A model generated the notes under the pieces. It saw only the letters and a list, made by a program, of their open reading frames with translations, searched no databases and was not told the origin of the DNA. DNA of 64,000 nucleotides from an uncultured Gemmatimonadales bacterium (GTDB lineage: Bacteria; Gemmatimonadota; Gemmatimonadetes; Gemmatimonadales; GWC2-71-9): positions 310,244-374,243 of the forward strand of contig CAWIXT010000006.1 of assembly GCA_963840165.1 (NCBI GenBank), read 5' to 3'. This document shows positions 5,405 to 57,283 of the stretch, in pieces (within the stretch, counting starts at the first letter, position 1; each line of letters starts with the position of its first letter). The position numbers and the translations under genes are program-made.

Positions 5405-6079
5405 ATGAGAATCCTGGTGACGGGCACTGACTCCCACGTAGGTAAGACGTGGGCGGGATGTGCACTGGCACAGGCGCTTCGAAGCGCCGGGCGCCGGGTG
5501 GTGGCGGTAAAGCCGGTGGAGACCGGGTGCCACGGTGCACCAGGGGATCGAGAGGACGGCGTGCTGCTGGCCCAGGCAACCGGGCAGTCGCAGCCTGCCC
5601 ACGCCATTTTTCGCGTGACCGATCCGGTGCCACCCGCGCTCGCCAGCGACCGCTCCGGCATCACCATCGACTTCGATGCGCTGGTGCTGAAGCTGGAGCG
5701 CTACGCCGACGACGCCGACTATCTCCTGATCGAGGGGGTGGGAGGCCTGCTCACGCCGATGACGTGGGAGTGGAACATGGTGGACGTGGCCAAGGCGCTG
5801 GGCGCCTGCGTCCTCGTGGTGGCGGTCGATCGGGTGGGGGCGATCAACGGCACACTGCTCGCCCTCAGCGCGCTCGAGCTGGCAGGGGTGTCCTGTGCTG
5901 GGGTCTTACTCACCACACCGGAGTCGCCCGATCAGACCACCGGAGTGAACGGGCCCGCGATCGCTCGACTGTCGGGGCTGGATCGCGTCGTGACCGCGCC
6001 GAGAACGGCATATCCCGACCGTACCGAAGCGATGCGCACGGTGGTCAGCTGGCTGAGCCGGATGCCGGTGGCTACGTGA
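5405..6079 (+). CDS. bioD: ATP-dependent dethiobiotin synthetase
   Basis: MRILVTGTDSHVGKTW P-loop, and IEGVGGLLTP. The ORF is 224 aa and intact. Confidence 0.9.
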   Translation: MRILVTGTDSHVGKTWAGCALAQALRSAGRRVVAVKPVETGCHGAPGDREDGVLLAQATGQSQPAHAIFRVTDPVPPALASDRSGITIDFDALVLKLERYADDADYLLIEGVGGLLTPMTWEWNMVDVAKALGACVLVVAVDRVGAINGTLLALSALELAGVSCAGVLLTTPESPDQTTGVNGPAIARLSGLDRVVTAPRTAYPDRTEAMRTVVSWLSRMPVAT

Positions 6080-6081
6080 AC

Positions 6082-6245
6082 GGGGAGGACGGGAAGGACG
6101 GGAAGGACGGGAAGGCGGGAACCAACAGACTCGTATCGCGATGCTAAGTAGCCCTGCTAAGACAGCGGTTTGGACCGCGCACCATGAATTGTAGATGTCT
6201 CCTCTTTCCCGTCTTTCCCGCCCTTCCCGCCTAACCCTTCCCCTC
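6082..6245. repeat. Paired inverted arrays of a 9-bp tandem repeat, (GGACGGGAA)n and its complement, around a lower-GC spacer of about 78 bp
   Basis: The left arm (6082-6122) reads ggggaggacgggaaggacgggaaggacgggaaggcgggaac. The right arm (6201-6245) reads cctctttcccgtctttcccgcccttcccgcctaacccttcccctc. The element sits between the convergent bioD and pepN ends. Confidence 0.85.
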
Positions 6246-8616
6246 AATCTGTCGCTCGATCGCCTCCAGCACCCAGCGCCGCACCCAGGGCCGAGAGTCG
6301 CTCCCGGTGCTGAACCAGCGCGGTCAGCGCCCGAGTGTCTCCCTCGGAGGCCAGGGTGGCCAGCACCAGGGACGGCAGCTGCTGGTCGCCGAGAATCTTT
6401 TCCAGTCCGTCGATGAGCGTCGAATCAGGCGCGCGGGCCGCGGCGGCGATCGCCGCGTTCTGAATGACGTCGCGGTAGGAGGACGTGGTCGAGCCCGGCC
6501 AGCACCGGGGCCGAGACCCGACCGAATCGATGCGGGCGAGAACGGCAAGCGCGCCGGCTCGGACCTCGTAGCTCGAGTCGCGCTTCCAGGCATTCAGGGC
6601 GGCGGTCTGCGCCCGCTCCCGCCCAGAGCTCCCAGGCTGCTGATTGCCGCCTCCCGCACCGCGGCGGAGGTGTCGCGCATCGCGGCCTCCAGCGGCGGTA
6701 GCGCCACCCGCGCCGGGAACCGGCGCAGCGCCCTCGCCGCCTCAGCCCGGGTCAGATAGTAGTCCGCCCGCTGGGCCGCTCGCGCCAGCGCCGCTGCCGC
6801 AAGCGAGTCGTCGGCCGCGCTGGGCCAGCTGATCGATCACCCAGCTCCGGTTCCAGAGATCGGGATCGCGAAACAGCTGGGTGGCCAGCCAGCGAGTCGG
6901 CTGCTCGAAGGCGAGCGTCTTGACCATGGCGTTGTTCTCGTCGAACACCACCATCTGGGGCTGCGATTTCACGCCCTCCGATCAGGATGACCTGCTCCCG
7001 CCGGTCCAGCTGGACCCGCTTCCGCACGTCCCCGGCTGAGGTGCCCACCCGGATCATGACCGGCCCCTGAAAGACCAGCGGGGTGGCGAACCGAAGACCG
7101 GAGCTGTCGGCTCGGGCGGTGTCCACCTGGGATCTGGTGCACCGTCAGCGCAAGCGTCCCCGCGACGGAATCGTACGCGGCAGTGACGTTGAACTCGGGG
7201 TAGCCCGCCGGATAGATCCACTGGTTCCAGAACCAGTCCAGGTTCCGCCCGGTGGCATAGAGCACCGCGCGCCGGAGATCGTCGCTGGTGGCGTTGCCGA
7301 AGGCATGCCGGGTGAGATACCGGTTGATGGAGGCCCAGAACCGCTCCGGACCCAGATGCTTCTTCAGCATCTGCAGGACCAGGGCGCCCTTGGTGTAGAC
7401 GTTGTTGGAGTTGAACGACGGCCAGCGGCACCCGCCGCCGGGCATCGGCGGCCAGGAAACGCCGGTACTCGTCGAGGTAGAAGTCGTCCTCCGCATGGCG
7501 GCCCAGCTTCGTGCCCCAGTACTGCCCGGCCATGAACTCGGCCATCCCCTCGTTGAGCCAGTAGTTGGACCAGTTCTCGGTGGTGACCAGGTTGCCGAAC
7601 CACTGGTGGGCGAGCTCATGCGGGATCAGCGAGTGGCGATACCAGGGCCGGTCGCGATAGGCTCGGGCATCCGGCAGCCAGTCCACCAGGGTGGTGGCGC
7701 CCACGTTTTCCATCCCGCCGATGAAGTCGGTGACGGTGGTCTGCGGGTAGCCGGCCCAGGGGTACTTCACGCCGGTGAGCCGGGTGAAGACCTCCATCAT
7801 GTCCGGTGTCGCGCCGAAGAGGCGGCGAGCCAGCGGCAGGTCCTCGGAGTAGACGTAGTACTCCAGCGGGATGTCACGCCAGCGCTCGGTCACCTTGGTC
7901 AACGGCGCAACTACCAGCGAGACCAGATAGGTCGAGGCGGGCCGCTCCTGACGCCAGTGCACGGTGTGGGTCCGCTGCTTTGCCGCGGCCGGAGAGCCTC
8001 GACTCACCGGATCGGGTTTGTCGCTCACCAGCCGGCCGTTCGAGACAACCGTGAGACCCACCGGCACCCGGGCGATCAGCTCCCAGGTCGCCTTGTCGTG
8101 GGGGCCGGCGTAGGTGGGAATCCAGTTGGGATTGCCGTCGGTGCCGCCGCCGCTGTACACCTGCTGGGTCCGCCGTCGGCGGCCGGGCTCGGCCTTGAAG
8201 AAGTAGAGACCGCGGCCCTGCATCACCTTGCCGCGATAGTCGATGGTGAGACGCATCGTGTCGCGGAAACCGGCCGGTCGCGGCAGCCGCACGACGATCG
8301 AATCACCCACCCGCGAATACTGGACGGGCGGACGGGCGGACGGGCGGACGGTTGAACGCGCCGAGCTCAGGGTGACGGTGCGGACGGCCAATCGCCGACC
8401 CATGTTCAGTACGATCGAATCCAGTCCCGGCTTGAGCGACACGAGCGTGGTGCTCACGTTGCCGTCGAAGGCGGTGGCATCCCAGTCGAAGTTGCCGACC
8501 TCGATGCGCTGATGAATGAGGTCGTAGTCGTGCGACGGGGTATCGCGGCCGCTGAGGATCCGTTCGGCGTTGGACTGCTGCGCCGAGAGCGAGGCGAGCC
8601 CCAGGAGCATCCTCAT
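6231..8616 (-). pseudogene. pepN: M1-family aminopeptidase N with a C-terminal HEAT-like repeat region; at least 6 frameshifts
   Basis: The GGMENVG exopeptidase motif and HELAHQWFGN...WLNEG gluzincin motif lie in ORF 7054..8625. The protein continues in other frames (6969..7619, 6752..7126, 6742..6972, and unlisted frames down to about 6231). The ATG at 8616 gives MRMLLGLASLSAQQ. Confidence 0.8.
8322..8379. repeat. 8-bp tandem array (GGACGGGC x3.75) plus a core-like segment embedded in frame in the pepN coding sequence
   Basis: Plus-strand ggacgggcggacgggcggacgggcggacgg occupies 8322-8351. The adjacent gctcagggtgac is identical to 12 nt of the intergenic core element. The region is translated as TVTLSSARSTVRPSARPPVQ in ORF 7054..8625. 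Confidence 0.7.
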
Positions 8617-8689
8617 CCCGAGCAACGCGAGGGATCAGCCGGCGCACGCGCGGACGTCGAGTAGGTCCCTCGCTGCGCTCAGGATGAGG
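8611..8689. repeat. Palindromic core element: two inverted arms of about 25 bp with a loop of about 27 bp
   Basis: cctcatcccgagcaacgcgagggatc (8611-8636) faces ggtccctcgctgcgctcaggatgagg (8664-8689). It lies between the pepN start and the rnhB stop. Confidence 0.8.
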
Positions 8690-9779: not shown

Positions 9780-9846
9780 GTCATCCGGAGTGCAACGAAG
9801 GATCCCTTCGATAGCGCGCAGAGATCCTTCGCTTCGCTCAGGATGA
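9780..9846. repeat. Palindromic core element (second copy of the 8611-type hairpin pair)
   Basis: gtcatccggagtgcaacgaaggatccc faces agatccttcgcttcgctcaggatgac. It lies between trmD and rplS. It accounts for the spurious peptide VILSEAKDL in ORF 9761..10513. Confidence 0.8.
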
Positions 9847-10523
9847 CGAATCGTGCTTCTCCCACAGGTCCGGCCGTCGCTCCCGGGTCAGCCGCTCCGA
9901 TTCCGCCTGCGCGCCACGCCGCGATCTCGGCGTGATTTCCCGAGCGCAGCACTTCGGCACCTCCAGCCCCCGATACTCCGGCGGCCGGGTATAGCTCGGC
10001 GGGCTCAGCAACCCGTCGTAGTGCGAGTCGGCGCTGGCCGATTCGTGATCGCCCAACGCGCCGGGCAGCAGCCGTACCACCGCATCGAGGACACACAGAG
10101 CGCCGCCGGCTCGCCTCCCGACAGCACGAAGTCGCCGATCGAGAGCTCCTCGGTGGCGAGCCCATCGGCCACCCGCTGGTCCACGTCCTTGTAGTGACCA
10201 CACAGCAGCGTGAGCCGTTCGACCCAGCGAGAAGCGCACCGCGTCGTCGTGGGTGAAGCGTCGCCCGCGCGCCGAGAGCAGCACGATCGGTCCGGTGGGC
10301 CGGAGCGTATCCACCGCCTCGAAGAACGGCTCCGGCTTCAGCACCATTCCCGCGCCGCCGCCATACGCGTAGTCGTCCACCGTCGAGTGGCGGTCGTGGG
10401 TGAAGTCTCGCAGCTGCACCAGGCGGAACTGACCAGTCCGGCCGCCGCGGCCCGGCCCGGAATGCTCGCTGCCACGTAGGGCGCGATGACTTCCGGAAAG
10501 AGGGTGACGACATCGATGGTCAA
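9838..10523 (-). pseudogene. trmD: tRNA (guanine37-N1)-methyltransferase; about 5 frameshifts
   Basis: A TTG start at 10523 gives MTIDVVTLFPEVIAPYV. The segments [45 protein letters not shown] and VLRSGNHAEIAAWR are all present, but in alternating frames. Confidence 0.85.
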
Positions 10524-10526
10524 CGT

Positions 10527-10638
10527 CGGTACGGCGGTAGGGCGGTAGGGCGGTATGCGTGAGCCCGTCTCGGATTCCATTCGGCACCCCTCACCTGCTG
10601 TTTACCGCCGTACCGTCCTACCGCCCTACCGCCTATCC
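10527..10638. repeat. Paired inverted arrays of the 8-bp repeat GGCGGTAG/CTACCGCC
   Basis: cggtacggcggtagggcggtagggcggtatgcg (10527-10558) faces tttaccgccgtaccgtcctaccgccctaccgcctatcc (10601-10638). The pair fills the whole rimM-trmD intercistronic gap. Confidence 0.85.
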
Positions 10639-11155
10639 CTCGATCAGTCCCTCCGGCGGCGTCACCACCAGCCTCCGCCCCGCCCGATCCACCTGCTGCA
10701 CGAACTCCTTCTTGTACGGCAGGAGAAACTCGCGCTTGGGCCCCTGCACCTCGATCATGATCCCCGAGGGGATCTCGTACACCGCGGAGACCAGCCCCAG
10801 CGGGGTCTCGTCCGGGCAGCCGCACGGAGAACCCGTCGAGCTCGTGGAGGTAGACCTCGTCGTCTGCCGGCGGCGTCAGCTGATCGGCCGGGACCCCGAG
10901 GAACGTGCCCCGGAACGGATCCAGCGCGTCGCGGCTGTCCACCTCCGCGAACTTCACCAGCCACTCGCGATGGTATTCCCTGCTGCGCTCGACCGTCAGC
11001 GGTCCGGCGACCGTCTCGCCGGCCAGGTTCACCACCCAGAGCTGCCGGCCCGGCGCGAAGTGGGTACCGGGATCGGCCGTCAGCGGGAACAGGGTGCAGT
11101 CACCCTTCAATCCGTGAGGCTTCCGCAGCCGGCCGACGACTACGTGGGCAGTCAC
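10633..11155 (-). pseudogene. rimM: 16S rRNA processing protein RimM; one +1 frameshift near 10814
   Basis: GTG start followed by VVVGRLRKPHGLKGD. After ELDGFSV, the PRC-barrel part (PLGLVSAVYEIPSGIMIEVQGPKREFLLPY...PPEGLIEG stop) reads in the next frame. Confidence 0.8.
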
Positions 11156-11259
11156 GAGTCACGAGTCACGAGTCACGAGTAACGCCGGCAGGCTATGATA
11201 ACACCGACCGAGCGGGCAGCTACCGACTCAGCGACTCGCGACTCGCGACTCGCGACTTC
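11149..11259. repeat. Paired inverted arrays of 7-bp repeats, (GTCACGA)n and (CGACTCG)n
   Basis: cagtcacgagtcacgagtcacgagtcacgagtaacg (11149-11184) faces ccgactcagcgactcgcgactcgcgactcgcgacttc (11223-11259). The pair overlaps the rpsP 3' end and the rimM start. Confidence 0.85.
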
Positions 11260-11511
11260 TGTCGAGAACACCCCCGCCTGCTTCAGCAGCGACTGCACCG
11301 TGTCCGACGGCGTCGCTCCCTTGGCGATCCATTGCCGAGCCTTCTCCGCGTCGACCTTGATCTTGTCGGCGGCCGTCTCGCCCTTCGGGTTGTAGGTGCC
11401 GATGATCTCGATGAAGCGCCCGTCGCGGGGCGCCTCCTGGTCGGCGATCACGATGCGGTAGAGCGGAAGCTTTTTCCGGCCGATCCGGCGGAGACGAATG
11501 CGAGTTGCCAT
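11173..11511 (-). CDS. rpsP: 30S ribosomal protein S16, with a C-terminal tail of about 30 aa encoded by the repeat element
   Basis: [35 protein letters not shown]. The ORF runs through the 7-mer array ([12 protein letters not shown]) before reaching its stop at 11173. Confidence 0.9.
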
Positions 11512-11532: not shown

Positions 11533-12878
11533 TTAACCGGGGAATCCGCCGCGTCCGAAAGGCAGCTTCAGACCGGCGCCTCCGGTCTTCCCCGCGATCT
11601 TCATGAACTTCTGCATCTGCTTGAACTGCGACAGCAAGGTGTTGACTTCCTGCACCGTGCGGCCCGACCCCTTGGCGATGCGCAGCCGGCGCTGGCCGTT
11701 GATGACGTCCGGGTTGCTTCGCTCCTTCGGCGTCATCGACAGCACGATCGCCTCGACGTGCTTCAGCTTCTTGTCGTCCAGCTTGGCCGCCTGCAGCATG
11801 GCCGGGTTCATCCCCGGCAGCATGCCGAGCACGTTCTTGAGCGGCCCCATCTTCTGCATCTGCCGCATGGCGTTCAGGAAGTCGCCCAGGTCGAGCCCCT
11901 TCTTCGACTGGACCTTCTTGGCCAGCCGCTCGGCTTCCTTCTCATCGACCGTCGTCTGCGCCTTCTCGACCAGCGACAGGATGTCGCCCTGCTGCAGGAT
12001 CCGCCCCGCCAGCCGGTCGGGATGGAACGGCTCCAGCGCGTCGAGCTTCTCGCCCACGCCGATGTACTTGATCGGCGCGTGGGTGACGCCGTAGATCGAG
12101 AGCGCCGCGCCGCCCCGGGCGTCGCCGTCCATCTTGGTCAGCACCACGCCGGTGATGCCGAGCGCGTCGTGGAAGCCCTGCGCGATCCGGACCGCGTCCT
12201 GGCCGGTCATGCCGTCGGCGACGAGCAGAATCTCGTGGGGCGACACCGCCGCCTTGAGCCGCTTCAGCTCGTCCATCATCTCGTCGTCGATCTGCAGCCG
12301 GCCCGCGGTGTCCACGATGACGGTCCGGGCCCGGGCCTTGCCCGCCGCCACGATCCCGTCGCGCACGATCTTGACGACGTCCTGGTTGCGCATTGTCGCT
12401 GTGGACCCCGACCTCGACCTGGCGTCCCAGCGTGTGCAGCTGGTCGATGGCTGCGGGACGGTACACGTCGGCCGCCACCAGGAACGGCGCCTTCTGCTCC
12501 AGCTTCAGCCGCCTGGCCAGCTTGCCGGCCGTGGTCGTCTTGCCCGACCCCTGCAGGCCGACCAGCAGGATGACCGTCGGCGGCACCGTGGCGTGCGCGA
12601 TCGGCGCCTGCTTCTCGCCCAGCAACAGCGACCAGCTCGTCGTACACGATCTTGACCAGCTGGTGGCCCGGCCGGACCTCCTTCAGTGCGGCGAGCCCGA
12701 TCGCCTTCTCCTGGACCCGGGTAAGGAAGTCCCGGGTCAGATCGAAGCTGACGTCGGCCTCGAGCAGAATCCGCCGGATCTCCCGGAGCCCTTCCTTGAC
12801 CGCCTCTTCCGTCAGAACGCCGCGCCCGGTAAGCCGCTGGAGCGTGGCGTTGAGTTTGCTCGAAAGCTCGTCGAACAT
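11533..12878 (-). pseudogene. ffh: Signal recognition particle protein Ffh; two frameshifts, near 12630 and 12395
   Basis: The N domain MFDELSSKLNATLQRLTG is in ORF 12276..13085. The G domain [15 protein letters not shown] is in 11942..12625. DTAGRL, DGDARGG and the Met-rich M domain are in 11533..12393. Confidence 0.9.
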
Positions 12879-12916
12879 AAGCCCGTAAGAGTAGCAGCGG
12901 AGCGGACTTTCTTCAA

Positions 12917-13076
12917 GGCGGGCGGACTGGCGGGCGGACAGGCGGCAGGCGGACAGGCGGCAGGCGGACAGGCGGACAGGCGGACAGGCGGACAGGCGGA
13001 CAGGCGGACAGGCGGACAGGCGGACAGGCGGACAGGCGGACAGGCGGACAGGCGGACAGGCGGACAGGCGGACAGA
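12917..13076. repeat. Long tandem array of the 8-bp unit GGCGGACA: about 14 perfect plus about 5 degenerate units, roughly 160 bp
   Basis: Read directly from the sequence: ggcggacaggcggacagg... runs without interruption from about 12963 to 13075, with degenerate units from 12917. It lies in the ffh / DUF445 divergent intergenic region. Confidence 0.95.
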
Positions 13077-13085
13077 AGGGAACAC

Positions 13086-13220
13086 CTCATCCCGAGCAAC
13101 GCGAGGGATCTGCTCAGTCAGTTCCCGAACAATGTTGAGTAGGTGCTGCGCTCGCTGGACTCACGCAGGCTGAGGTGTCCTGTTTCCGTCCGCCTTACCG
13201 CCCTACCGCCTTACCGCCTA
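13086..13220. repeat. Single core-element arm plus a C-rich 8-mer array (CTTACCGC/CCTACCGC)
   Basis: cctcatcccgagcaacgcgagggatc at 13086-13110 is identical in 25/26 nt to 8611-8636. tgtcctgtttccgtccgccttaccgccctaccgccttaccgcc lies at 13177-13220. Confidence 0.65.
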
Positions 13221-13229
13221 ATTTCCACC

Positions 13230-20447: not shown

Positions 20448-21279
20448 TGCCCTCGATCAGGGCGCCAAGATCGCCCGTCACCCGGCCGGCCGTCTCCATC
20501 ACCTCCTCGTGATTGAGTTTGGTTGGTGAGATGCCGGAGGCGAGGTTAGTCACCACGGAGAAGCCGAGACAGCGAAGCCCACGGGCCCGTGCGGCGATCA
20601 CCTCGATCACGGTAGACATCCCCACCGCATCGCCACCGAGCCGGTCCAGCATGCGGATCTCGGCGGGAGTCTCGAAGCTGGGCCCCAGCAGCTGGACGTA
20701 GACCCCTTCGTCCAGGCCCAGCCGCTTTTCTCGCGCCACATCGCGCGCCAGGCCACGGAGCGCTGAATCATAGGGATCCGACATGTCCGGAAACCGCTCC
20801 TCGCCGGGCAGTACCGGGCCCAGCAGCGGGCTCCGGAATGTCAGGTTGATGTGGTCGGCAATGAGCATCAACGCTCCCTGGGCGAAGGTTCGGCGGATCC
20901 CGCCGGCTGCATTGGTCAGCAGGAGAGTCTTGACGCCGAGAGCCGCGAAGGTGCGCACCGGCAGCGCTGCCACCTCTGGGTCATGCCCTTCATAGAGATG
21001 GAACCGCCCGCTCTGGGCAATGATCTCCTTGCCGCCCAGGCTTCCCGCCACCAGCTCTCCGCCGTGGCCGATCACCGTGGGCTCAGGAAAACCGGGGACG
21101 TCACGATAGGGAATCGTGACCCGATCCTGAATTCGTTGGGTGAAGAATCCGAGGCCCGATCCCAAGACGACTGCGATTGACGGTGTGAAGGTGCCAAGCC
21201 GTTGTCTGACCGCATCGGCAGCTTGCCGCACTTGATCCGATACCGCTGCCCCGCTGCCCCGCTGCCCCGCCTCCGTCAC
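20431..21279 (-). CDS. punA: Purine nucleoside phosphorylase (PunA-type); start uncertain
   Basis: VVLGSGLG, HGGELVAG, LTNAAGG and GDAVGMSTV. The GTG at 21279 overlaps the nupC stop (GTGA). An internal GTG about 17 codons downstream is an alternative start. Confidence 0.85.
21243..21270. repeat. 8-bp tandem repeat (CCGCTGCC x3; GGGGCAGC on the minus strand)
   Basis: ccgctgccccgctgccccgctgccccgc lies directly after the nupC stop. If the GTG at 21279 is the punA start, it is translated as GQRGSGAA. Confidence 0.8.
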
Positions 21280-45061: not shown

Positions 45062-45957
45062 AGCGGCCCGCCGAGCGCCTGGCGGCAATCGACGTGGGCT
45101 CCAACACCGTCCTCCTGACGGTGGCCGATTTCGACCGGGATACCGGCCTGACCGTCGTCGAGGAGGCCGAAGACCAGCCCCGCCTCGGCTCAGGAATCGC
45201 CGGGGGCCGCCTGAGTGAGGCCTCCATGGCGCGGGCCCTCCTCTCCCTGACCCGCATGAGAGACACATGTCGGCGCCTGGGCGTGCAGCGAACGGCGGCC
45301 GCAGCTACCGCCGCCGTGAGAGAAGCCGAAAATGGGCCCGACTTCGTGGAGCGGGTTCGGGCGCTCGACATCCCGCTCCGCATCATCTCCTCCGACATCG
45401 AGGCGGCACTCTCCTACCGCTCGGCAGCCTATCGCTTCCCCGGCGATGAGCCCACGCTCGTCGCCGACATCGGTGGCGGCAGCCTGGAGCTGATCAGCTC
45501 GAGTGGGGGGCGCGCGCTGCGGTCCGACTCCTTGCCGCTGGGAGCAGTGAGGCTGACTGAGCTCGGGACCTCGGGCGAGCAGCTACACGCGCACATCCGA
45601 GGCGTCCTCAGCCGAGCGATGGTGCCCGAATGGCGGCACTCGAGAATCATCGGGTCGGGAGGAACCTTTGCGACCCTGGCGGCCATGGTGCTCGCCGGTC
45701 GGAAGTCCAGCACCCACCCCGTCCACGGCACGACCATTCGGGCGGGAGAGGTGACGCAGCTGCTGGATACCTTGTCGGGCCTCACGCCGGAGCAGAGGCG
45801 TCAGACGCCGGGACTCAAGCCGGAGCGGGCCGACATTATCGTGGCGGGTATTGCTGTGGTCGCCGAGCTGCTGGTAATGGCCGAGGCGGGAGGCGTTACG
45901 GTCAGCGGGTTCGGCTTGAGAGACGGGCTACTGCTCGAGATGGCCGGAATGCAATAG
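45058..45957 (+). CDS. ppx: Short Ppx/GppA-family phosphatase (ASKHA domains only, no HD domain)
   Basis: [16 protein letters not shown] and [11 protein letters not shown]. It is 299 aa. The GTG start overlaps the phoU stop. Confidence 0.8.
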
Positions 45958-46040
45958 TCATTGCGAGGGCGCTAGCCCGAAGCAATCCCGCCGCGAACGC
46001 AACCGGATCGCCACGCGGCCGACGGGCCGCTCGCGATGAC
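45957..46040. repeat. Palindromic element of the GTCATTGCGAG type
   Basis: gtcattgcgagggcgctagcccgaagcaatcc ... ccgctcgcgatgac. The termini GTCATTGCGAG/CTCGCGATGAC are inverted with one mismatch. It fills the gap between the convergent ppx and ALDH ends. Confidence 0.75.
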
Positions 46041-46045
46041 TGCGG

Positions 46046-48502
46046 TTACTCCCCGTAAGGGATCCAGATGTTCTTCACCTGGGTGGCCTGCTCCAGGAAC
46101 TCCTCGCCTGCACCGCGCCGTTGGTCCGCCCAATCCCGCCCCTTTCCATGGTCTACCCAGGTACGCTTCATATTCCCGGTGGACAGACGTTCCACCTCGG
46201 CCGACATCTCAGCCGTACCGAAGTACCATAACCCATCCACGTCGTCATGAGCAGCGAGAACCGGAGCCAGCTCTTCGCTGCTGCCGGTCACGAGATTGAT
46301 CACGCCGGCGGGCACATCGGAGGTGTCCAGCACCTGGTAGAGCTCGGTAGCGACCAGCGGTGCCTGCCGCGAGGGAATGGCCACGACGGTATTGCCCATG
46401 GCGATGGGCGGCAGGACAGTCGATAGCAGGGAGAGCAGCGGCTGCTCATCGGGACACACCACACCCATGACACCGATCGGCTCGGGCATGGCCAGCGTCA
46501 CATTGCGGTACGGCGTATGATGTACCGCCCCATCGTACTTGTCGGCCCAAGCAGCGTAGACGTAGATCCGCTCGATGGCCAGCTCCACCTCCCGCGCCGC
46601 CATGGCCGCATCGCCGGTGCTCATGGCAATCCGGCCGCTGAACTCTTCGGCGCGCGCGGCCAGATTTTCCGCCAGGTAGTAAAGCACCTGGGCCCGGTTG
46701 TGGGCCGTGCCACCCCCCCAGCCGGCCGCCTTGTGCGCCGCTTCCACCGCGTTGCGAATGTCCTTGCGGTTTCCCTGCCCCACCTCACCGATCTGGCGGC
46801 CGGATGCATCCATCACGGGCAGGCTGTAGCCCGAATCCGGACGCACCTGCTTACCGCCGATGTAGAGCTTGGCGGTTCGGTTGATCGGGGGGACGGGCGG
46901 ACCGGCGGACGGGCGGACGGGCTGCCGTAAGGGTGGGCGTTCGGCCGAAGCAGCCGACTTTCTCGTCTTGCTTCGGGCTGCCTGTCTGCCTGTCCGCCTG
47001 TCCGCCTGTCCGCCCGTCCGCCCGTCCGCCTGCTCGTCCGTCCGCCAGCGAAGGTACTCCCGCAGCCCCTCGCGCCCGCCTTCACGGCCGAAGCCACTCT
47101 CGCGATATCCACCAAATCCGCTGGCGGCGTCGAATACGTTGGTGCAGTTCACCCAGACGGTGCCGGCTTTGAGCTGGGGCGCGATATCGAGGGCGAGGTT
47201 GATGTTCTCGGTCCAGACGCTGGCAGCCAGGCCGTAGCGGGTGTTGTTGGCCAGCTCGACCGATTCGGCCGGAGTGCGGAAGGTCATGAGGACCACCACC
47301 GGTCCGAAGATCTCCACCTGGGCAATGGTGGCGGCGGGCGACACCTCGGTGAACAAGGTCGGCGGAAAGAACCAGCCATCGGCCGGGCAGCTCCAGGAGG
47401 GCTGCCAGAGGGTGGCGCCTTCGTCCTCGCCCCGGCGCACCAGGTCCTGGATTTTCTCCAGCTGAACCGGGGCGATGATGGCCCCCATGTCTACCGCCTT
47501 GTCGAGCGGGTCCCCCACCCGCAGCGTCTCCATTCGCTGCTTCAGCTTGGTCACCAGCCGCTCGGCCACCCCCTCCTGGACCAGGATGCGGGACCCGGCG
47601 CAGCACACCTGGCCCTGATTGAACCAGATGGCATCCACCACCCCCTCGACCACGCTGTCGAGATCGGCGTCCGAGAAGACGATGAATGGCGACTTCCCGC
47701 CCAGCTCCAGCGAGAGCTTCTTGCCGCTGCCGGCCGTGGCGGAGCGGATTATGCGGCCCACTTCGGTCGAGCCGGTGAACGCGATCTTGTCTACATCGGG
47801 GTGCCCCACCAGCGCTGCGCCGGCGCGTCCGTCTCCGGTGATGATGTTGATCACACCTGGCGGCAGGCCGATCTCCTGGGATAGCTCGGCGAACCGGAGA
47901 GCGGTGAGCGAGGTGAACTCCGCCGGCTTGAGCACCACCGTGTTACCCATGGCCAACGCCGGCGCGATCTTCCAGGCCAGCATGAGGAGCGGGAAATTCC
48001 AGGGGATGATCTGCCCGATCACGCCCAGCGGCAGGCGGCCAGGTAGCTCCTGCTCCATCAGCTGGGCCCAGCCCGCATGATGATAGAAGTGGCGGGCCAC
48101 GAGGGGCACGTCGATGTCGCGCGATTCCCGTATCGGTTTTCCGTTGTCGAGCGATTCCAGGACGGCCAGCAGGCGGCTGTGTTTCTGTACCTCCCGCGCC
48201 AACGCGTAGAGATACCGGGCTCGGCCGTGCCCACCGAGCGACCACCAGAGCGGCTGCGCCGATCGGGCGGCGCGGACGGCACGGTCTACCTCGGCATCGG
48301 TGGCCTGCGCCAGCCGCGCCACCGGCTTCCCGGTGGCCGGGTTCAACGTCTCGAAGCTGTCACCCTTTCCCGCTATCCACTCCCCACCGATGAAAAGACC
48401 GAACCGTCGCCCGTGGGCCTCGAGCCACTGGTTTACCGGGCCTACTCCTTCGGGAGCCGGTCCATAGTCCATCGACTGGAAGATTTCGGGAACTGATGCC
48501 AT
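46046..48502 (-). CDS. Fused aldehyde dehydrogenase: a full catalytic ALDH joined by a repeat-encoded linker to a truncated ALDH-like (NAD-binding only) module
   Basis: The N-terminal half has ELGGKSP and FNQGQVCCAGSR (catalytic Glu and Cys). The C-terminal part of about 280 aa (AKLYIGGKQVRPDSGY...KNIWIPYGE) is ALDH-like, but I could not see a catalytic Cys. There is no stop between the two halves. The ATG at 48502 has a GGAGG Shine-Dalgarno. Confidence 0.75.
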   Translation of the reverse strand: MASVPEIFQSMDYGPAPEGVGPVNQWLEAHGRRFGLFIGGEWIAGKGDSFETLNPATGKPVARLAQATDAEVDRAVRAARSAQPLWWSLGGHGRARYLYALAREVQKHSRLLAVLESLDNGKPIRESRDIDVPLVARHFYHHAGWAQLMEQELPGRLPLGVIGQIIPWNFPLLMLAWKIAPALAMGNTVVLKPAEFTSLTALRFAELSQEIGLPPGVINIITGDGRAGAALVGHPDVDKIAFTGSTEVGRIIRSATAGSGKKLSLELGGKSPFIVFSDADLDSVVEGVVDAIWFNQGQVCCAGSRILVQEGVAERLVTKLKQRMETLRVGDPLDKAVDMGAIIAPVQLEKIQDLVRRGEDEGATLWQPSWSCPADGWFFPPTLFTEVSPAATIAQVEIFGPVVVLMTFRTPAESVELANNTRYGLAASVWTENINLALDIAPQLKAGTVWVNCTNVFDAASGFGGYRESGFGREGGREGLREYLRWRTDEQADGRTGGQADRRTGRQAARSKTRKSAASAERPPLRQPVRPSAGPPVPPINRTAKLYIGGKQVRPDSGYSLPVMDASGRQIGEVGQGNRKDIRNAVEAAHKAAGWGGGTAHNRAQVLYYLAENLAARAEEFSGRIAMSTGDAAMAAREVELAIERIYVYAAWADKYDGAVHHTPYRNVTLAMPEPIGVMGVVCPDEQPLLSLLSTVLPPIAMGNTVVAIPSRQAPLVATELYQVLDTSDVPAGVINLVTGSSEELAPVLAAHDDVDGLWYFGTAEMSAEVERLSTGNMKRTWVDHGKGRDWADQRRGAGEEFLEQATQVKNIWIPYGE
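46887..47046. repeat. Paired inverted 8-mer arrays (GGACGGGC/GGCGGACA family) forming the ALDH interdomain linker
   Basis: ggggggacgggcggaccggcggacgggcggacgggc (46887-46922) faces gcctgtctgcctgtccgcctgtccgcctgtccgcccgtccgcccgtccgcctgctcgtccgtccgcc (46979-47046). A spacer of about 57 nt separates them. The element is translated as DEQADGRTGGQADRRTGRQAARSKTRKSAASAERPPLRQPVRPSAGPPVPP. Confidence 0.85.
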
Positions 48503-48521
48503 TGAACCTCCGCAAAAGCTC

Positions 48522-48718
48522 ACCACAGAGGACACAGAGGGCTCCTCTAACCGAGTGGCTCACGACATCGCGTGATTCGACTTCTTAAGAGAAATCTTTG
48601 GGTGGGCTCCTAACCGCATGGAGCTCCAACTCAATCCCACAAAAAACATCTTCAGGTAGTGGATCCCGCGATGTCGAAAACTTCGCCGGTCGCCGGCACC
48701 CTCTGTGTCCTCTGTGGT
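48522..48718. repeat. Nested palindromic element (about 197 bp) between deoC and the ALDH gene
   Basis: The outer inverted repeat is 20 bp and perfect: accacagaggacacagaggg (48522-48541) against ccctctgtgtcctctgtggt (48699-48718). The inner inverted repeat is 10 bp and perfect: cgacatcgcg (48563-48572) against cgcgatgtcg (48667-48676). The core is lower in GC. Confidence 0.85.
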
Positions 48719-48764
48719 AAAAAATGGGTGGGGAGCTGGGGCAAAGCCAGATTTCGCGGACGTG

Positions 48765-49781
48765 TCATATTGTGGGGTGTCGGTGAGCAGCTGAATATCG
48801 CCCGGTCACGAAGTGCTCCAACTGGCGCTCGAGGTCGGCCAGCAGGGTGCTCGCGCCGAAGCGGAACAGATGGGGGCGGAGCCAGGCATCGCCCAGCTCG
48901 TCCTTCACCAGCATCAGCCAGTCCAGGGCCTCTCTGGCGGTGCGAATGCCGCCGGCCGCCTTGAGTCCCACCAGCTGCCCGGTACGCTCATGGTAGTCGC
49001 GAATGGTTCGAGCCATTACCAGCCCCACCGGCAGCACGGCATTCACACTTTCCTTGCCGGTCGAGGTCTTGATGAAGTCGGCGCCCGCCATCATACACAC
49101 CAGGCTGGCTCGCGCCACGTTGCGGAGGGTGCCGAGCTCACCGGTCGCGAGGATGGTTTTGATGTGGGCGTCGCCGCAGGCCTCGCGCATGGCGCGCACT
49201 TCCTGGTACAGGCCGGGCCAGTCCTCCCGCAGCACGTAGCCGCGGGTGATCACGACGTCGATCTCCTCCGCCCCCGCCGCCACCGAGGAGCGGATCTCCG
49301 CCACTCGCTGCTCGAACGGTGAGAGCCCGGCGGGAAAGCCGGTAGAGACCGCCGCCACCGGGATCCCCGACGCTTGAAGCGCGTCGAGCGCCGTCTCTAC
49401 GAAGGCGTGGTAGACACAGACCGCCGCCGCGCGGATGGGAAGCTGGGCCGCGCCCATTGCCTCGAGCAGCTCCGGGCGAACCGGCCGGCGCGCCTTGGCG
49501 CAGAGCCGGCGTACCCGGCCCGCGGTATCGTCGCCGGAGAGAGTGGTGAGATCCAACAGGGTGACGGCTCGTAACAGCCAGGCGGCCTGCCACTCTTTCT
49601 TGACGGTTCGACGAGTCCGAAGCGTCGCAGTCCGGCGCTCGACTGCGCTCCGGTTGACCCTCATCTCCTCGACCCAATCCAGCTCCAGCGGCATCCCGGG
49701 ATTCCGGGGCGTGACTGGCACGTCGAGCGGTCCAGGTCGGGAAGGCGAGACCGGGCGCTGCTGGTTTGGCATGTCGTGCAT
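48765..49781 (-). CDS. deoC: Deoxyribose-phosphate aldolase (long form)
   Basis: LLDLTTLSGDDT and the Schiff-base lysine context ADFIKTSTGK. It is 338 aa. Confidence 0.85.
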   Translation of the reverse strand: MHDMPNQQRPVSPSRPGPLDVPVTPRNPGMPLELDWVEEMRVNRSAVERRTATLRTRRTVKKEWQAAWLLRAVTLLDLTTLSGDDTAGRVRRLCAKARRPVRPELLEAMGAAQLPIRAAAVCVYHAFVETALDALQASGIPVAAVSTGFPAGLSPFEQRVAEIRSSVAAGAEEIDVVITRGYVLREDWPGLYQEVRAMREACGDAHIKTILATGELGTLRNVARASLVCMMAGADFIKTSTGKESVNAVLPVGLVMARTIRDYHERTGQLVGLKAAGGIRTAREALDWLMLVKDELGDAWLRPHLFRFGASTLLADLERQLEHFVTGRYSAAHRHPTI

Positions 49782-49818: not shown

Positions 49819-49874
49819 ACGGGGCTGCCCCTGATGCACTTGGCCTTGCGGCCCCGGTGCCCCGCTGCCCCGCC
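49819..49874. repeat. GGGGCAGC-family 8-mer repeats (C-rich on the plus strand) with a short complementary upstream arm
   Basis: gacggggctgcccctg (49819-49834) and gccccggtgccccgctgccccgcc (49851-49874). It lies between the deoC start and the rhomboid stop. Confidence 0.7.
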
Positions 49875-54479: not shown

Positions 54480-56042
54480 ATGTCTTCACGATCGCTAAAC
54501 TGGCTCAAGTTCGGTGGTTTGGTCGCCCTGGCCTTTGCCTTGGGGCTGCTCTTTGCGGGGTTGTTGGACCTGCCCAACCGCTCGGCGGCCCAGGAACAGG
54601 GGCGCCAGACAAGCGCCATCGCCAAAGTCCCGGCCCCCTCCATCCCTGCGGCGCTGCCCCTCCAGGAGCTCAGTGAGGCGTTTGCCGCCGTCGCCGAGCA
54701 TGTCAAGCCAAGCGTGGTGTATATCCGGTCCCAGCGCACGGAGAGCACCACCAGGCAGCGGGTCCCGCGAGGCATGGAGCGGTTATTTCCCCAGTTCCGC
54801 CCCCGGGACGAGATCGAGCAGGGCAGCGGCTCGGGGTTCGTGGTGTCGTCCGACGGGTTCATTCTCACCAACAATCACGTAGTCGAGGGTGCCGAGCAGG
54901 TGACGGTCCGGCTGCTGGATCGGCGTGAGTTCAAAGCCAAGGTCATCGGCACCGACCCGAACACCGACGTGGCCGTGCTCAAGATCGATGCGAAGGGACT
55001 GCCACCCGTGGCACTGGGGAACAGTGAGGATGCGCGGGTAGGTGAATGGGTGCTCGCCATCGGCAACCCGCTCGGCGAGGGCCTCACCTTCACCGTGACG
55101 TCCGGTATCGTGAGCGCCAAGGGCCGGGCCCTCAACGGCCTTCCGGGCCGGGGCCAGGGCAGCATCCAGGACTTCATTCAGACCGATGCGGCCATCAACC
55201 CCGGCAACTCGGGCGGACCGCTTGTCAGCGTCAGGGGTGAGGTCATCGGGATCAACTCCGCGATTGCCAGCGAAACCGGCTTCTACTCCGGCTATGGCTT
55301 TGCCATCCCTATCAACCTCGCGCGCACCGTCATGAACCAGCTGGTGGAAACCGGTTCGGTGCACCGGGCCGCGCTGGGAGTCTCCATCGACAACGTCACC
55401 CTCACCGATGCCGAGTATGTCGGGCTCCCGGAAATCCGGGGTGTCGTAGTGAAGGACATTCCCAACGAGGATTCCCCGGCTAAGGCCGCCGGTATCGTTC
55501 CCGGCGATGTGATCGTCTCGGTCGACAGCAAGCCGGTCGAGCGGGTCGGTCAACTCCAGCAGGTCATCGGCTTTCGGAAGCCGGGCGACGTGGTCAAAGT
55601 CGAAGTCGCCCGGAAGGGGGGCGTGCGCAAGACCTTCGACGTCAAGCTCCAGGCCCTCAACGACCAGCCGCAGGTGGCCAGCGCCGAGGAGGGCGAGACC
55701 GAGAACGGCGGCGAACCGGCCGGGACGGCAATGAACCGGCTGGGGATCAGTGTGGAGCCGGTCACTCCCAGCGTTGCCCAGCAGCTTCAGCTTCCCCAGG
55801 ACATGCGGGGCCTGGTCGTCACGGATGTGACGCCCGGTGGACCGGCCTGGGAGACCCTGGTGGACGATCCGCAGCGCAACGGACCCGACATCATTCTATC
55901 GGTGGAGGGCAAGCCGGTGCGGACGGAAGCCGAGCTCCGCAACGCTCTCAAGGCCGAGAAGCCCGGGAGCATCGTCTCACTCGGCATCTACAACCCGCGG
56001 AGCCGCAGCCGCAGGGTGGATCGGATCCGGCTCGGGGAGTAA
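54480..56042 (+). CDS. htrA: Periplasmic serine endoprotease, HtrA/DegP/DegQ family, with two PDZ domains
   Basis: The ATG at 54480 is preceded by GAAGGA. An N-terminal TM anchor is present. The catalytic residue contexts are TNNHVV, DVAVLKI and GNSGGPLV. Two PDZ-like regions follow. Confidence 0.9.
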   Translation: MSSRSLNWLKFGGLVALAFALGLLFAGLLDLPNRSAAQEQGRQTSAIAKVPAPSIPAALPLQELSEAFAAVAEHVKPSVVYIRSQRTESTTRQRVPRGMERLFPQFRPRDEIEQGSGSGFVVSSDGFILTNNHVVEGAEQVTVRLLDRREFKAKVIGTDPNTDVAVLKIDAKGLPPVALGNSEDARVGEWVLAIGNPLGEGLTFTVTSGIVSAKGRALNGLPGRGQGSIQDFIQTDAAINPGNSGGPLVSVRGEVIGINSAIASETGFYSGYGFAIPINLARTVMNQLVETGSVHRAALGVSIDNVTLTDAEYVGLPEIRGVVVKDIPNEDSPAKAAGIVPGDVIVSVDSKPVERVGQLQQVIGFRKPGDVVKVEVARKGGVRKTFDVKLQALNDQPQVASAEEGETENGGEPAGTAMNRLGISVEPVTPSVAQQLQLPQDMRGLVVTDVTPGGPAWETLVDDPQRNGPDIILSVEGKPVRTEAELRNALKAEKPGSIVSLGIYNPRSRSRRVDRIRLGE

Positions 56043-56048
56043 CTAGCA

Positions 56049-56194
56049 GCGGGTAACCGGGTAACCGGGTAAGCCGGTAGAGTACACGAGGGGGCCAGAA
56101 GCTGAATAGAGCTCGGCCCCTTCGCTGCGCTCAGGGTGACAGAGGCTCTCCCCCCCGGCCTACCCGCTTACCCGCCCACCCGCTGTCCCGCTAC
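56049..56194. repeat. Paired inverted 8-mer arrays (GGGTAACC / TACCCGCY) enclosing a single core-element arm
   Basis: gcgggtaaccgggtaaccgggtaagccggtagag (56049-56082), core ccccttcgctgcgctcagggtgaca (56117-56141), and ggcctacccgcttacccgcccacccgctgtcccgctac (56157-56194). Confidence 0.8.
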
Positions 56195-56930: not shown

Positions 56931-57200
56931 ATGACCACCAGCGAAGAGACCGACTGGATGAACCATCCCGCTATCCGGGCCCTGGTGGATCAGGCGAACA
57001 CCTTGCAGCTCGAAGAGCGGATCACGCTGGTCAAAGGTTTGATCCCCGGCATAGCGGACGCACTCTCGGAGGAGGAATACGAGCAGTTCGTCACCTTCAT
57101 CAGGCTCAAGGGCGAGCGGTACCACGAGGCGAAATCCCATCCGGGCGCCGGCCGGGCCGAGCGACACATCCCGGGTGAGCGCGAGCTGGAAGGACGGTAG
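56931..57200 (+). CDS. Small hypothetical protein (89 aa)
   Basis: The ATG at 56931 within ORF 56820..57200 gives MTTSEETDWMNHPAIRALVDQANTLQLEERITLVKGLIPG. The composition looks coding, but I recognised no motif. Confidence 0.45.
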   Translation: MTTSEETDWMNHPAIRALVDQANTLQLEERITLVKGLIPGIADALSEEEYEQFVTFIRLKGERYHEAKSHPGAGRAERHIPGERELEGR

Positions 57201-57283
57201 GCAGCGGGGCAGCGGGGCAGCGGGGCAGCGGGGCAGCGGGGCAGCCAAACTAGCAAATTGTCACCCTGAGCGCAGCGAGGGGG
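57200..57283. repeat. 8-bp tandem array (GGCAGCGG x5.5, five GGGG tracts) followed by a core-element arm
   Basis: ggcagcggggcagcggggcagcggggcagcggggcagcggggcagcc (57200-57246), and tgtcaccctgagcgcagcgaggggg (57259-57283). The latter is the 24/25 reverse complement of 56117-56141. Confidence 0.9.

Follow-up and report, generated by a model that had tools for sequence, protein, structure and literature searches.

An in-frame palindromic short-repeat element, predicted to be translated, occupies the interdomain linker of a bacterial ALDH16 in one Gemmatimonadales clade

Enzymes of the ALDH16 family (cd07111) are aldehyde dehydrogenases (ALDH) with an additional C-terminal domain, which is similar to a nicotinamide adenine dinucleotide (NAD)-binding domain, does not bind nucleotide, and gives rise to a new dimer; bacterial ALDH16 is active, and the vertebrate form is a pseudoenzyme (PMC12041015, PMC8160307). 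With its C-terminal domain packed against the catalytic part, the monomer mimics the classical ALDH dimer and assembles into a new type of homodimer (PMC12041015, PMC8160307). Structures of the enzyme from Loktanella sp. have been solved (PDB 6MVR, 6MVS, 6MVT, and 6MVU; Liu and Tanner 2019, as given in PMC12041015 and PMC8160307). Here we describe an ALDH16 gene in a 64-kb stretch of a Gemmatimonadales genome (the window, whose positions serve as coordinates throughout), in which the linker between the two modules is encoded by a pair of inverted arrays of 8-bp repeats. Our preferred explanation, to which we assign a probability of roughly 0.8, is that the protein is a bacterial ALDH16 with an ancient fusion and that its unconstrained linker is occupied, in one Gemmatimonadales clade, by a translated palindromic short-repeat element.

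Short-repeat arrays of related build have been described elsewhere. Xanthomonas (GGGAATC) and Nostoc (GGGGAYT, or STRR-type) genomes contain arrays of G-rich heptamers (Rehm et al. 2015, PMC4692102), and each Xanthomonas genome has 70 to 75 array pairs that are inverted (convergent) and able to fold into stem-loops (PMC4692102). Arrays of this type share one consensus unit throughout the genome (GGGNATC), with four or more G-tracts that would allow a G-quadruplex, and prefer sites no more than ∼50 bp from a stop codon, where they are G-rich on the coding strand (PMC4692102). A second precedent, the Rickettsia palindromic elements (RPE), consists of ∼150-bp, sequence-conserved mobile copies encoding a conserved peptide (PMC10969869).

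Judged by its sequence, the window protein is a bacterial ALDH16 and, as such, unremarkable within a known family of two-module enzymes. A phmmer search of the PDB with the whole protein matched 6MVR over both modules (E of 3e-283), with query residues 3-485 aligned to target residues 3-476 and query residues 538-817 aligned to target residues 497-766, the latter stretch with an E of ∼1e-80. Between them, query residues 486-537 face only target residues 477-496. When searched alone, the C-terminal module found residues 500-766 of 6MVR and 6MVU with an E of 3e-103, whereas ordinary ALDHs were matched only at ∼1e-26. The protein shares with the Loktanella enzyme a catalytic ALDH with the Asn, Glu, and Cys residues followed, on the same chain, by a C-terminal NAD-binding-like domain of ∼270 amino acids, at an identity of 52-53% over ∼810 columns. 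It differs in the linker, which is ∼20 amino acids long in 6MVR and 54 amino acids long here, encoded by the inverted 8-bp arrays. The top three Foldseek matches of an AlphaFold2 (AF2) model were likewise "bacterial ALDH16" structures; the template modeling (TM) score to 6MVR was 0.35-0.39 despite 52% identity, the model being poor, with a mean predicted local distance difference test (pLDDT) value of 66.8 and values below 50 also in the catalytic domain, compared to ∼90 in the C-terminal domain. An NCBIfam search with the fused protein gave no specific family above cut-off.

The catalytic module is complete. Pfam Aldedh covers residues 53-499 at profile positions 1-460 of 461, the motifs ELGGKSP and QVCCAGS are found in the translation of the open reading frame (ORF), and the catalytic motifs IPWNFP (Asn), LELGGK (Glu), and QVCCAGSR (Cys) are conserved relative to 6MVR, with motif residues invariant in 47 relatives. 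The C-terminal 280 residues matched only Aldedh positions 15-237 of 461, and this module therefore lacks the catalytic half. These ALDH16 features, a complete catalytic module and a C-terminal half-ALDH on one polypeptide, are thus present in a single ORF, much as an earlier note on this DNA had described it (a complete ALDH joined to a second ALDH-like module of ∼280 residues, apparently without the catalytic half). Translation from the ATG at 48502 gives 818 residues, and an in-frame GTG upstream, at 48535, would give an ORF of 829 residues (46046..48535, minus strand). A protein identical to the 818-residue form, P0121, was found in a public collection on a 1.23-Mb contig. From the conserved catalytic motifs and the deoC neighbor discussed below, the window protein is probably catalytically competent and would carry out NAD-dependent aldehyde oxidation.

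The fusion of the two modules is ancient, widespread, and structurally solved. A profile search with the C-terminal module over one genome per species gave 585 confirmed loci, and a tblastn search with both modules allowed both ends to be placed at 77 loci. The best 80 of the 585 loci come from Gemmatimonadota, Bacteroidota, Chloroflexota, Acidobacteriota, Myxococcota, Verrucomicrobiota, Armatimonadota, and other phyla. At 75 of the 77 loci the ALDH module lies directly upstream of the C-terminal module, in the same frame and with a stop-free linker. Linkers range from 66 to 252 nt, with a median of 111 nt; in Bacteroidota and several other phyla they are short, non-repetitive, and without unusual folding, the plain linkers of other phyla measuring 22-30 amino acids. 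The two out-of-frame exceptions (L002 and L003), whose frame shifts in the linker, sit on error-rich contigs with more frameshifts inside the ALDH module. All 120 relatives returned by a full-length protein search are 800-835 amino acids long. Because 75 of 77 loci in at least seven phyla share one frame without a stop and many of their linkers are non-repetitive, the fusion predates the element.

Proteins of 256-490 amino acids, obtained in a search with the C-terminal domain only, could be read as products of separate genes; we rejected this reading, as their contigs show fragments or frameshifted, error-rich products.

These loci also decide between the two histories that the earlier note had offered, namely, that the element fused two adjacent ALDH genes by replacing the stop codon of one and the start of the next or that it invaded a pre-existing linker. 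The former would explain why the element occupies the exact position where a stand-alone ALDH would end, and elements of this class typically abut stop codons and can extend ORFs, as in the tails of rimM and rpsP. It is nevertheless refuted by the fused architecture in at least seven phyla, with many linkers that are non-repetitive and devoid of the element, and by the solved ALDH16 fold; moreover, the sole out-of-frame loci are the two error-rich contigs with frameshifts inside the ALDH module. The aligned orthologous loci hold one gene, not two, and show the same fusion with a non-repetitive linker, the very pattern that the note had named as speaking against a fusion caused by the element. 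Invasion of an existing linker is the history supported by a fusion found in many phyla with non-repetitive linkers.

The linker of the window protein has the sequence TDEQADGRTGGQADRRTGRQAARSKTRKSAASAERPPLRQPVRPSAGPPVPP, and an example of a peptide that spans the linker in the predicted protein is QPVRPSAGPPVPPINR. As the note had proposed, the joining codons are exactly one inverted octamer-array element (54 codons, 46886-47047), detected both by Tandem Repeats Finder (TRF) and by a repeat finder. TRF reported CGGGCGGA in 4.6 copies at 46886-46922 and GCCTGTCC in 6.6 copies at 46980-47032, with the latter array continuing to 47046, and the two arms are inverted repeats with a complementarity of 82-93%, the individual inverted repeats I1-I6 covering 80-93%. 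The element folds with a free energy of -101.8 kcal/mol (z = -6.1), a stability reached by none of 200 dinucleotide shuffles. The note was also right that no stop interrupts the reading frame, and in fact five of the six frames are stop free. Translation would give a peptide of low complexity, first rich in G, R, T, D, and Q and then in P, S, A, and R, while the spacer between the arms encodes an RK(S/V)xxS-like motif common to the window, L010, L012, L005, and L004. In the AF2 model, which is poor and was built from a shallow alignment of 47 sequences, residues ∼493-545 have no secondary structure and pLDDT falls below 50 at residues 491-533.

The same architecture marks a clade. In ∼15 Gemmatimonadales loci the linker DNA is an inverted array pair whose units differ between lineages (Table 1), with hairpin z-scores from about -2 (L007) to -10, and in a neighbor-joining tree of the two modules the palindrome-linker loci form one clade. 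L005 and L006 fall inside this clade with linkers that are equally long but decayed. Of the 120 relatives, which are 80-88% identical, nearly all show the signature of the palindrome in their predicted translation, with codons rich in G, R, T, D, and K followed by codons rich in P, S, A, and R. Linker flavors are few, with units that differ by single bases (GGCGGACR, GGCGGAAR, GGCGGTAR, and GGGGCAGC). No account of repeats of this kind in Gemmatimonadetes came up in a search of the literature.

The linker diverges faster than synonymous sites and yet stays constantly in frame. Between the window and its nearest relative, L085, identity is 93.6% for the protein, 72.7% for 4-fold sites outside the linker, and only 41.7% for linker nucleotides, and the left linker boundary is sharp. 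The metagenome contigs L086 and L087 are ∼96-97% identical over 3 kb with linkers that cannot be aligned, one of the GGACGGGC/GGACAGGC type and the other of the GCGGAAAR type; L087 retains old-type units CCCGTCCGCCT solely at the outer right edge of its linker. A 24-nt indel further distinguishes the two contigs in the spacer between deoC and the ALDH16 gene. A discrete change of this kind was seen as well between near-identical cores, with 98.2% identity in the core and 38% in the linker. By comparison, three independent contigs with cores 99.5-99.7% identical (P0139, P0141, and P0144) have identical linkers, and in other close pairs the linkers differ by substitutions or by replacement of the whole linker, always in frame. 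There was no sign of a rapid flicker in unit number among the close relatives compared.

This last result bears on the suggestion that the linker is a contingency (phase-variation) switch, in which adding or removing one 8-bp unit changes the reading frame and turns off the C-terminal domain. Simple sequence repeat (SSR) contingency loci, such as the tetranucleotide repeats of Haemophilus, likewise hold within an ORF a tandem unit whose length is not a multiple of three, so that slippage would switch the frame. The arithmetic favors a switch: a unit of 8 bp does not make up whole codons, and simulated changes of +8 or -8 nt in the element lead to a stop 10-30 codons past the linker and hence to an ALDH-only product, in line with the note's remark that the frame would be lost if a single unit came or went. 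L002 and L003 do change frame within the linker. However, no frame-breaking length variation was seen either among the three contigs with 99.5-99.7% identical cores or among the 120 relatives; the gene is in frame at 75 of 77 loci and in 120 of 120 full-length relatives, P0139, P0141, and P0144 have identical linkers, other close pairs show substitutions rather than unit indels, and L002 and L003 are frameshifted elsewhere too. In contrast to SSR contingency loci, the repeat here is paired with an inverted copy, no frame-changing length polymorphism occurs among the relatives compared, and the gene encodes a cytoplasmic catabolic enzyme, an atypical contingency target. A switch is thus very improbable.

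A hairpin that works in RNA or DNA, either as a ribosome pause that allows the catalytic module to fold first or as an attenuator or processing site inside the gene that sets the ratio of full-length to truncated product, would account for the clade-wide retention of strong hairpins despite a sequence turnover above that of synonymous sites and for arms that remain complementary as their units change, in a covariation-like manner. Such a function is nonetheless improbable in our view. Arm mismatches comprise 10 G.U and 17 A.C on the sense strand; with no excess of G.U over A.C and neither the sense nor the antisense fold consistently stronger, a sense-RNA signature is absent and the symmetry looks like a DNA-level property rather than the outcome of selection on the mRNA. 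The close relatives L005 and L006 lost the palindrome and kept the gene, and plain linkers of 22-30 amino acids suffice in other phyla. A promoter and terminator scan of 45900-48700 gave nothing above shuffles or background, no Rfam family matched, and elements of this architecture are found in non-coding DNA too, an indication that a general process of the genome is at work.

A conventional mobile insertion, resembling a miniature inverted-repeat transposable element (MITE) and repeatedly re-inserted or swapped by recombination rather than evolving as a concerted array in place, would explain the all-or-nothing linker differences between near-identical cores (98.2% versus 38%), the sharp left boundary in the comparisons of the window with L085 and of L086 with L087, the recurrence of the same linker flavors in different parts of the core tree, and the old-type units CCCGTCCGCCT at the outer right edge of L087, which look like the remains of an older element around a newer one. 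On the other hand, units and spacers differ between loci of one genome, and there are thus no sequence-conserved copies; no target-site duplication is visible at the window/L085 and L086/L087 boundaries, in comparisons between occupied sites; and the flavors GGCGGACR, GGCGGAAR, and GGCGGTAR are one base apart, as expected from mutation and homogenization. The core tree on which the recurrence of flavors rests is itself poorly resolved at a fine scale and does not separate recombination from parallel turnover of linker flavor. RPEs offer a precedent for an in-frame insertion, as they too are palindromic repeat DNA in frame in unrelated metabolic genes and translated as an extra, fold-compatible segment (in our case the translation is predicted), but RPEs and MITEs differ from the arrays described here, whose arms are locus-specific and tandem, turn over fast, and have no conserved copies within the 64 kb and the related loci. 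Taking both sides together, we hold a mobile insertion to be possible but doubtful.

We therefore return to the translated palindromic element in a tolerant linker. The element would then be a DNA-level, self-renewing or selfish structure without function for the enzyme. The linker would tolerate any sequence, and the element would simply be translated into a low-complexity peptide, while the palindrome and the complementarity of its arms may be renewed by array slippage combined with exchange from arm to arm or with recombination of alleles. Since the arrays are nearly stop free in all frames and the linker is tolerant, a total length that is a multiple of three would be the only selective filter.

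Several observations weigh against this explanation. Near-perfect hairpins persist while synonymous sites have strongly diverged, which pure neutrality does not predict, and either a self-maintaining mechanism or selection for the hairpin is needed to explain their persistence. The all-or-nothing linker differences at 97-98% identical cores could reflect recombination or re-insertion instead of turnover of the arrays in place. Disorder of the linker, which the model suggests, rests on a poor AF2 prediction (mean pLDDT of 66.8). Finally, since the window assembly has frameshifts in essential genes, the exact unit counts in the window copy are not guaranteed. A stronger version of the self-renewal idea, in which the arrays are not transposon copies but form a distinct self-renewing palindromic class with arms co-homogenized faster than synonymous divergence and the ALDH16 copy is maintained as a ribosome pause or a slippage switch, seems unlikely to us.

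The assembly of the window probably contains indel errors. The essential genes ffh (11533-13085, three pieces) and trmD (9838-10587, two pieces) are split over several frames, and the ORF of an M1 peptidase (7054-8634) turns into nonsense after about residue 400. These frameshifts, together with the short-read contigs that end inside the linker (L015, L017, L054, and L063), might raise the suspicion that the in-frame palindrome is an artifact of error-prone assembly, but the same in-frame architecture is corroborated in dozens of assemblies that are independent and bear different assembler tags in the names of their contigs, and an artifact is hardly conceivable.

The linker copy belongs to a wider class of arrays in this genome. 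The window contains 8 perfect arrays in which a 7-9-nt unit is repeated at least 3 times, compared to 0 in 100 third-order Markov simulations, and TRF together with array scans detected ∼15 arrays of 7-9-nt units in the 64 kb. Counting the linker, the window has five pairs of inverted arrays built in this way, and the note's label of an intergenic-type element is thus fair. Units vary by locus (ACGGGAAGG, CGGTAGGG, AGTCACG, GGCGGACA, CGGGTAAC, and GGCAGCGG), and Rfam at gathering thresholds returned just two tRNAs from the whole window, with no match at any array. Among 38 inverted pairs from the window and loci L004-L083, 32 begin with the G-rich array (3 are reversed and 3 neutral). This order is a real structural asymmetry because a palindrome reads alike on both strands, its 5' arm being G-rich on either. 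Outside the linker, 12 of 20 pairs have a stop codon no more than 25 nt away, compared to 7.7% for random positions. Arrays begin a few bases from the stop codons of bioD (6077-6079), htrA (56040-56042), nupC (21276, minus strand), and the rhomboid gene (49880, minus strand) and are G-rich on the coding strand; the linker copy, where there is no stop, is the exception.

The nearest known counterparts of this class are the convergent arrays of G-rich units in Xanthomonas and Nostoc. Common to both are dispersed head-to-tail arrays of 6-9-nt G-rich units (∼15 arrays in the window), convergent pairs that can form stem-loops (five in the window, with the G-rich arm first in the proportion given above), and proximity to stop codons with the G-rich strand as the coding strand, as in the 12 of 20 non-linker pairs. 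The differences are that the units here are locus-specific (GGACGGGC, CGGTAGGG, ACGGGAAGG, AGTCACG, and others, none of which equals the GGGNATC consensus) and mostly 8 nt long, that the host belongs to Gemmatimonadota, and that one copy is the clade-wide translated linker of an enzyme. Inverted pairs were also noticed in Armatimonadota (L044), Herpetosiphonaceae (L073), and Verrucomicrobiae (L080).

Table 1. Features of the ALDH16 locus, repeat arrays in the window, and linker units by locus
Feature	Position	Strand	Basis, content, or loci
ALDH16 coding sequence	46046..48502	-	818 aa plus stop; ORF list, P0121, phmmer versus PDB 6MVR
Catalytic ALDH module, aa 1-485	47048..48502	-	Pfam Aldedh full profile; 6MVR residues 3-476 aligned
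Interdomain linker, aa 486-539, 54 aa	46886..47047	-	Gap between 6MVR-aligned stretches; wholly encoded by the repeat element
C-terminal ALDH16-specific domain, aa 540-818, Rossmann-like half-ALDH without catalytic domain	46046..46885	-	Pfam, 6MVR
Arm 1, tandem 8-mers CGGGCGGA/GGACGGGC, ~5 units	46886..46927		G-rich on + strand; - strand encodes ...PVRPSAGPPVPP; TRF, repeat finder, array scan
Spacer with own small inner hairpin (~46941-46979)	46928..46975		Encodes ...ARSKTRKSAASAERPPL...; folds
Arm 2, tandem 8-mers GCCTGTCC/GCCCGTCC, ~8 units, reverse complement of arm 1	46976..47046		- strand encodes TDEQADGRTGGQADRRTGRQ; TRF, inverted repeats I1-I6
deoC (deoxyribose-phosphate aldolase)	48765..49781	-	NCBIfam TIGR00126, 147 bits versus cut-off 117
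Inverted array pairs besides the linker	6078-6231, 10523-10633, 11149-11261, 12916/12959-13221		TRF, folds, array scan
Similar, more degenerate inverted pair	~56048-56192		
Single arrays	8321-8358, 21242-21274, 49850-49873, 57199-57257		
Linker unit GGACGGGC			Window, L010, L012, L016, L043
Linker unit GGCGGTAA			L004, L011
Linker unit GGCGGTCG			L014
Linker unit GGACGGTC			L025
Linker unit GGGACGGC			L013, L020, L040
Linker unit GGGAAGAC			L026, L050
Linker unit GGAATGCG			L001

The gene neighborhood gives an indication of the role of the enzyme. A deoC gene lies directly upstream of the ALDH16 gene, on the same strand, at 56 of 62 loci (L002-L081) from many phyla, and Gemmatimonadales keep the gene order rhomboid-deoC-ALDH16-ppx/gppA-phoU-pstB. 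Because this neighbor is conserved, a role in oxidizing the acetaldehyde released by deoxyribose-phosphate aldolase is suggested. Neither the deoC neighbor nor such a role is mentioned in the ALDH16 reviews PMC12041015 and PMC8160307. The spacer between the two genes (48503-48764, 260 nt) has a GC content noticeably below that of its surroundings and repeats the motif GGCTCCT(C)TAACCG at ∼48540 and ∼48606; in L010, L044, L046, L078, and L080, an inverted heptamer-array element is found in the equivalent spacer.

For the enzyme itself these results have little consequence, as the ALDH16 structure is solved and the fusion is ancient. What is mildly new is a clade-wide, fast-evolving, and always in-frame palindrome in the ALDH16 linker, together with a family of G-rich-first arrays near stop codons. 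A short-repeat hairpin of ∼160 bp tolerated within a conserved gene across a whole clade is a natural experiment for genome biology and a convenient site for studying the origin, the upkeep of symmetry, and the selective filtering of short-repeat palindromes; if the element does renew itself, the linker would be a frame-constrained natural reporter of palindrome generation and upkeep. There is also a practical warning, in that gene callers split ALDH16 where assemblies slip at the element. Palindromic arrays appear to break short-read assemblies, yielding truncated "256-320-aa ALDH" calls in public databases. The contigs L015, L017, L054, and L063 and the partial proteins P0016 and P0061 begin inside or at the linker.

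Other arrays in the window also touch coding sequences. A rimM-like ORF (10520-11155, minus strand) spans the whole element at 10523-10633 and has the tail ...GGRAVGRYGGK...AYRPTALPPYRR, and the rpsP ORF (11173-11511, minus strand) terminates inside a heptamer element, with the tail ...SRESRVAES.... In the M1-aminopeptidase-like ORF (7054-8634, minus strand), the array at 8321-8358 consists of GGACGGGC, the unit of the ALDH16 linker, and gives VRPSARPP. An unusually long array of 18 x GGCGGACA occupies 12933-13075, and its only inverted partner (13189-13221) is short and degenerate. This array is flanked by the divergent starts of ffh (minus strand) and an unnamed 439-aa ORF (plus strand), with no stop codon adjoining it.

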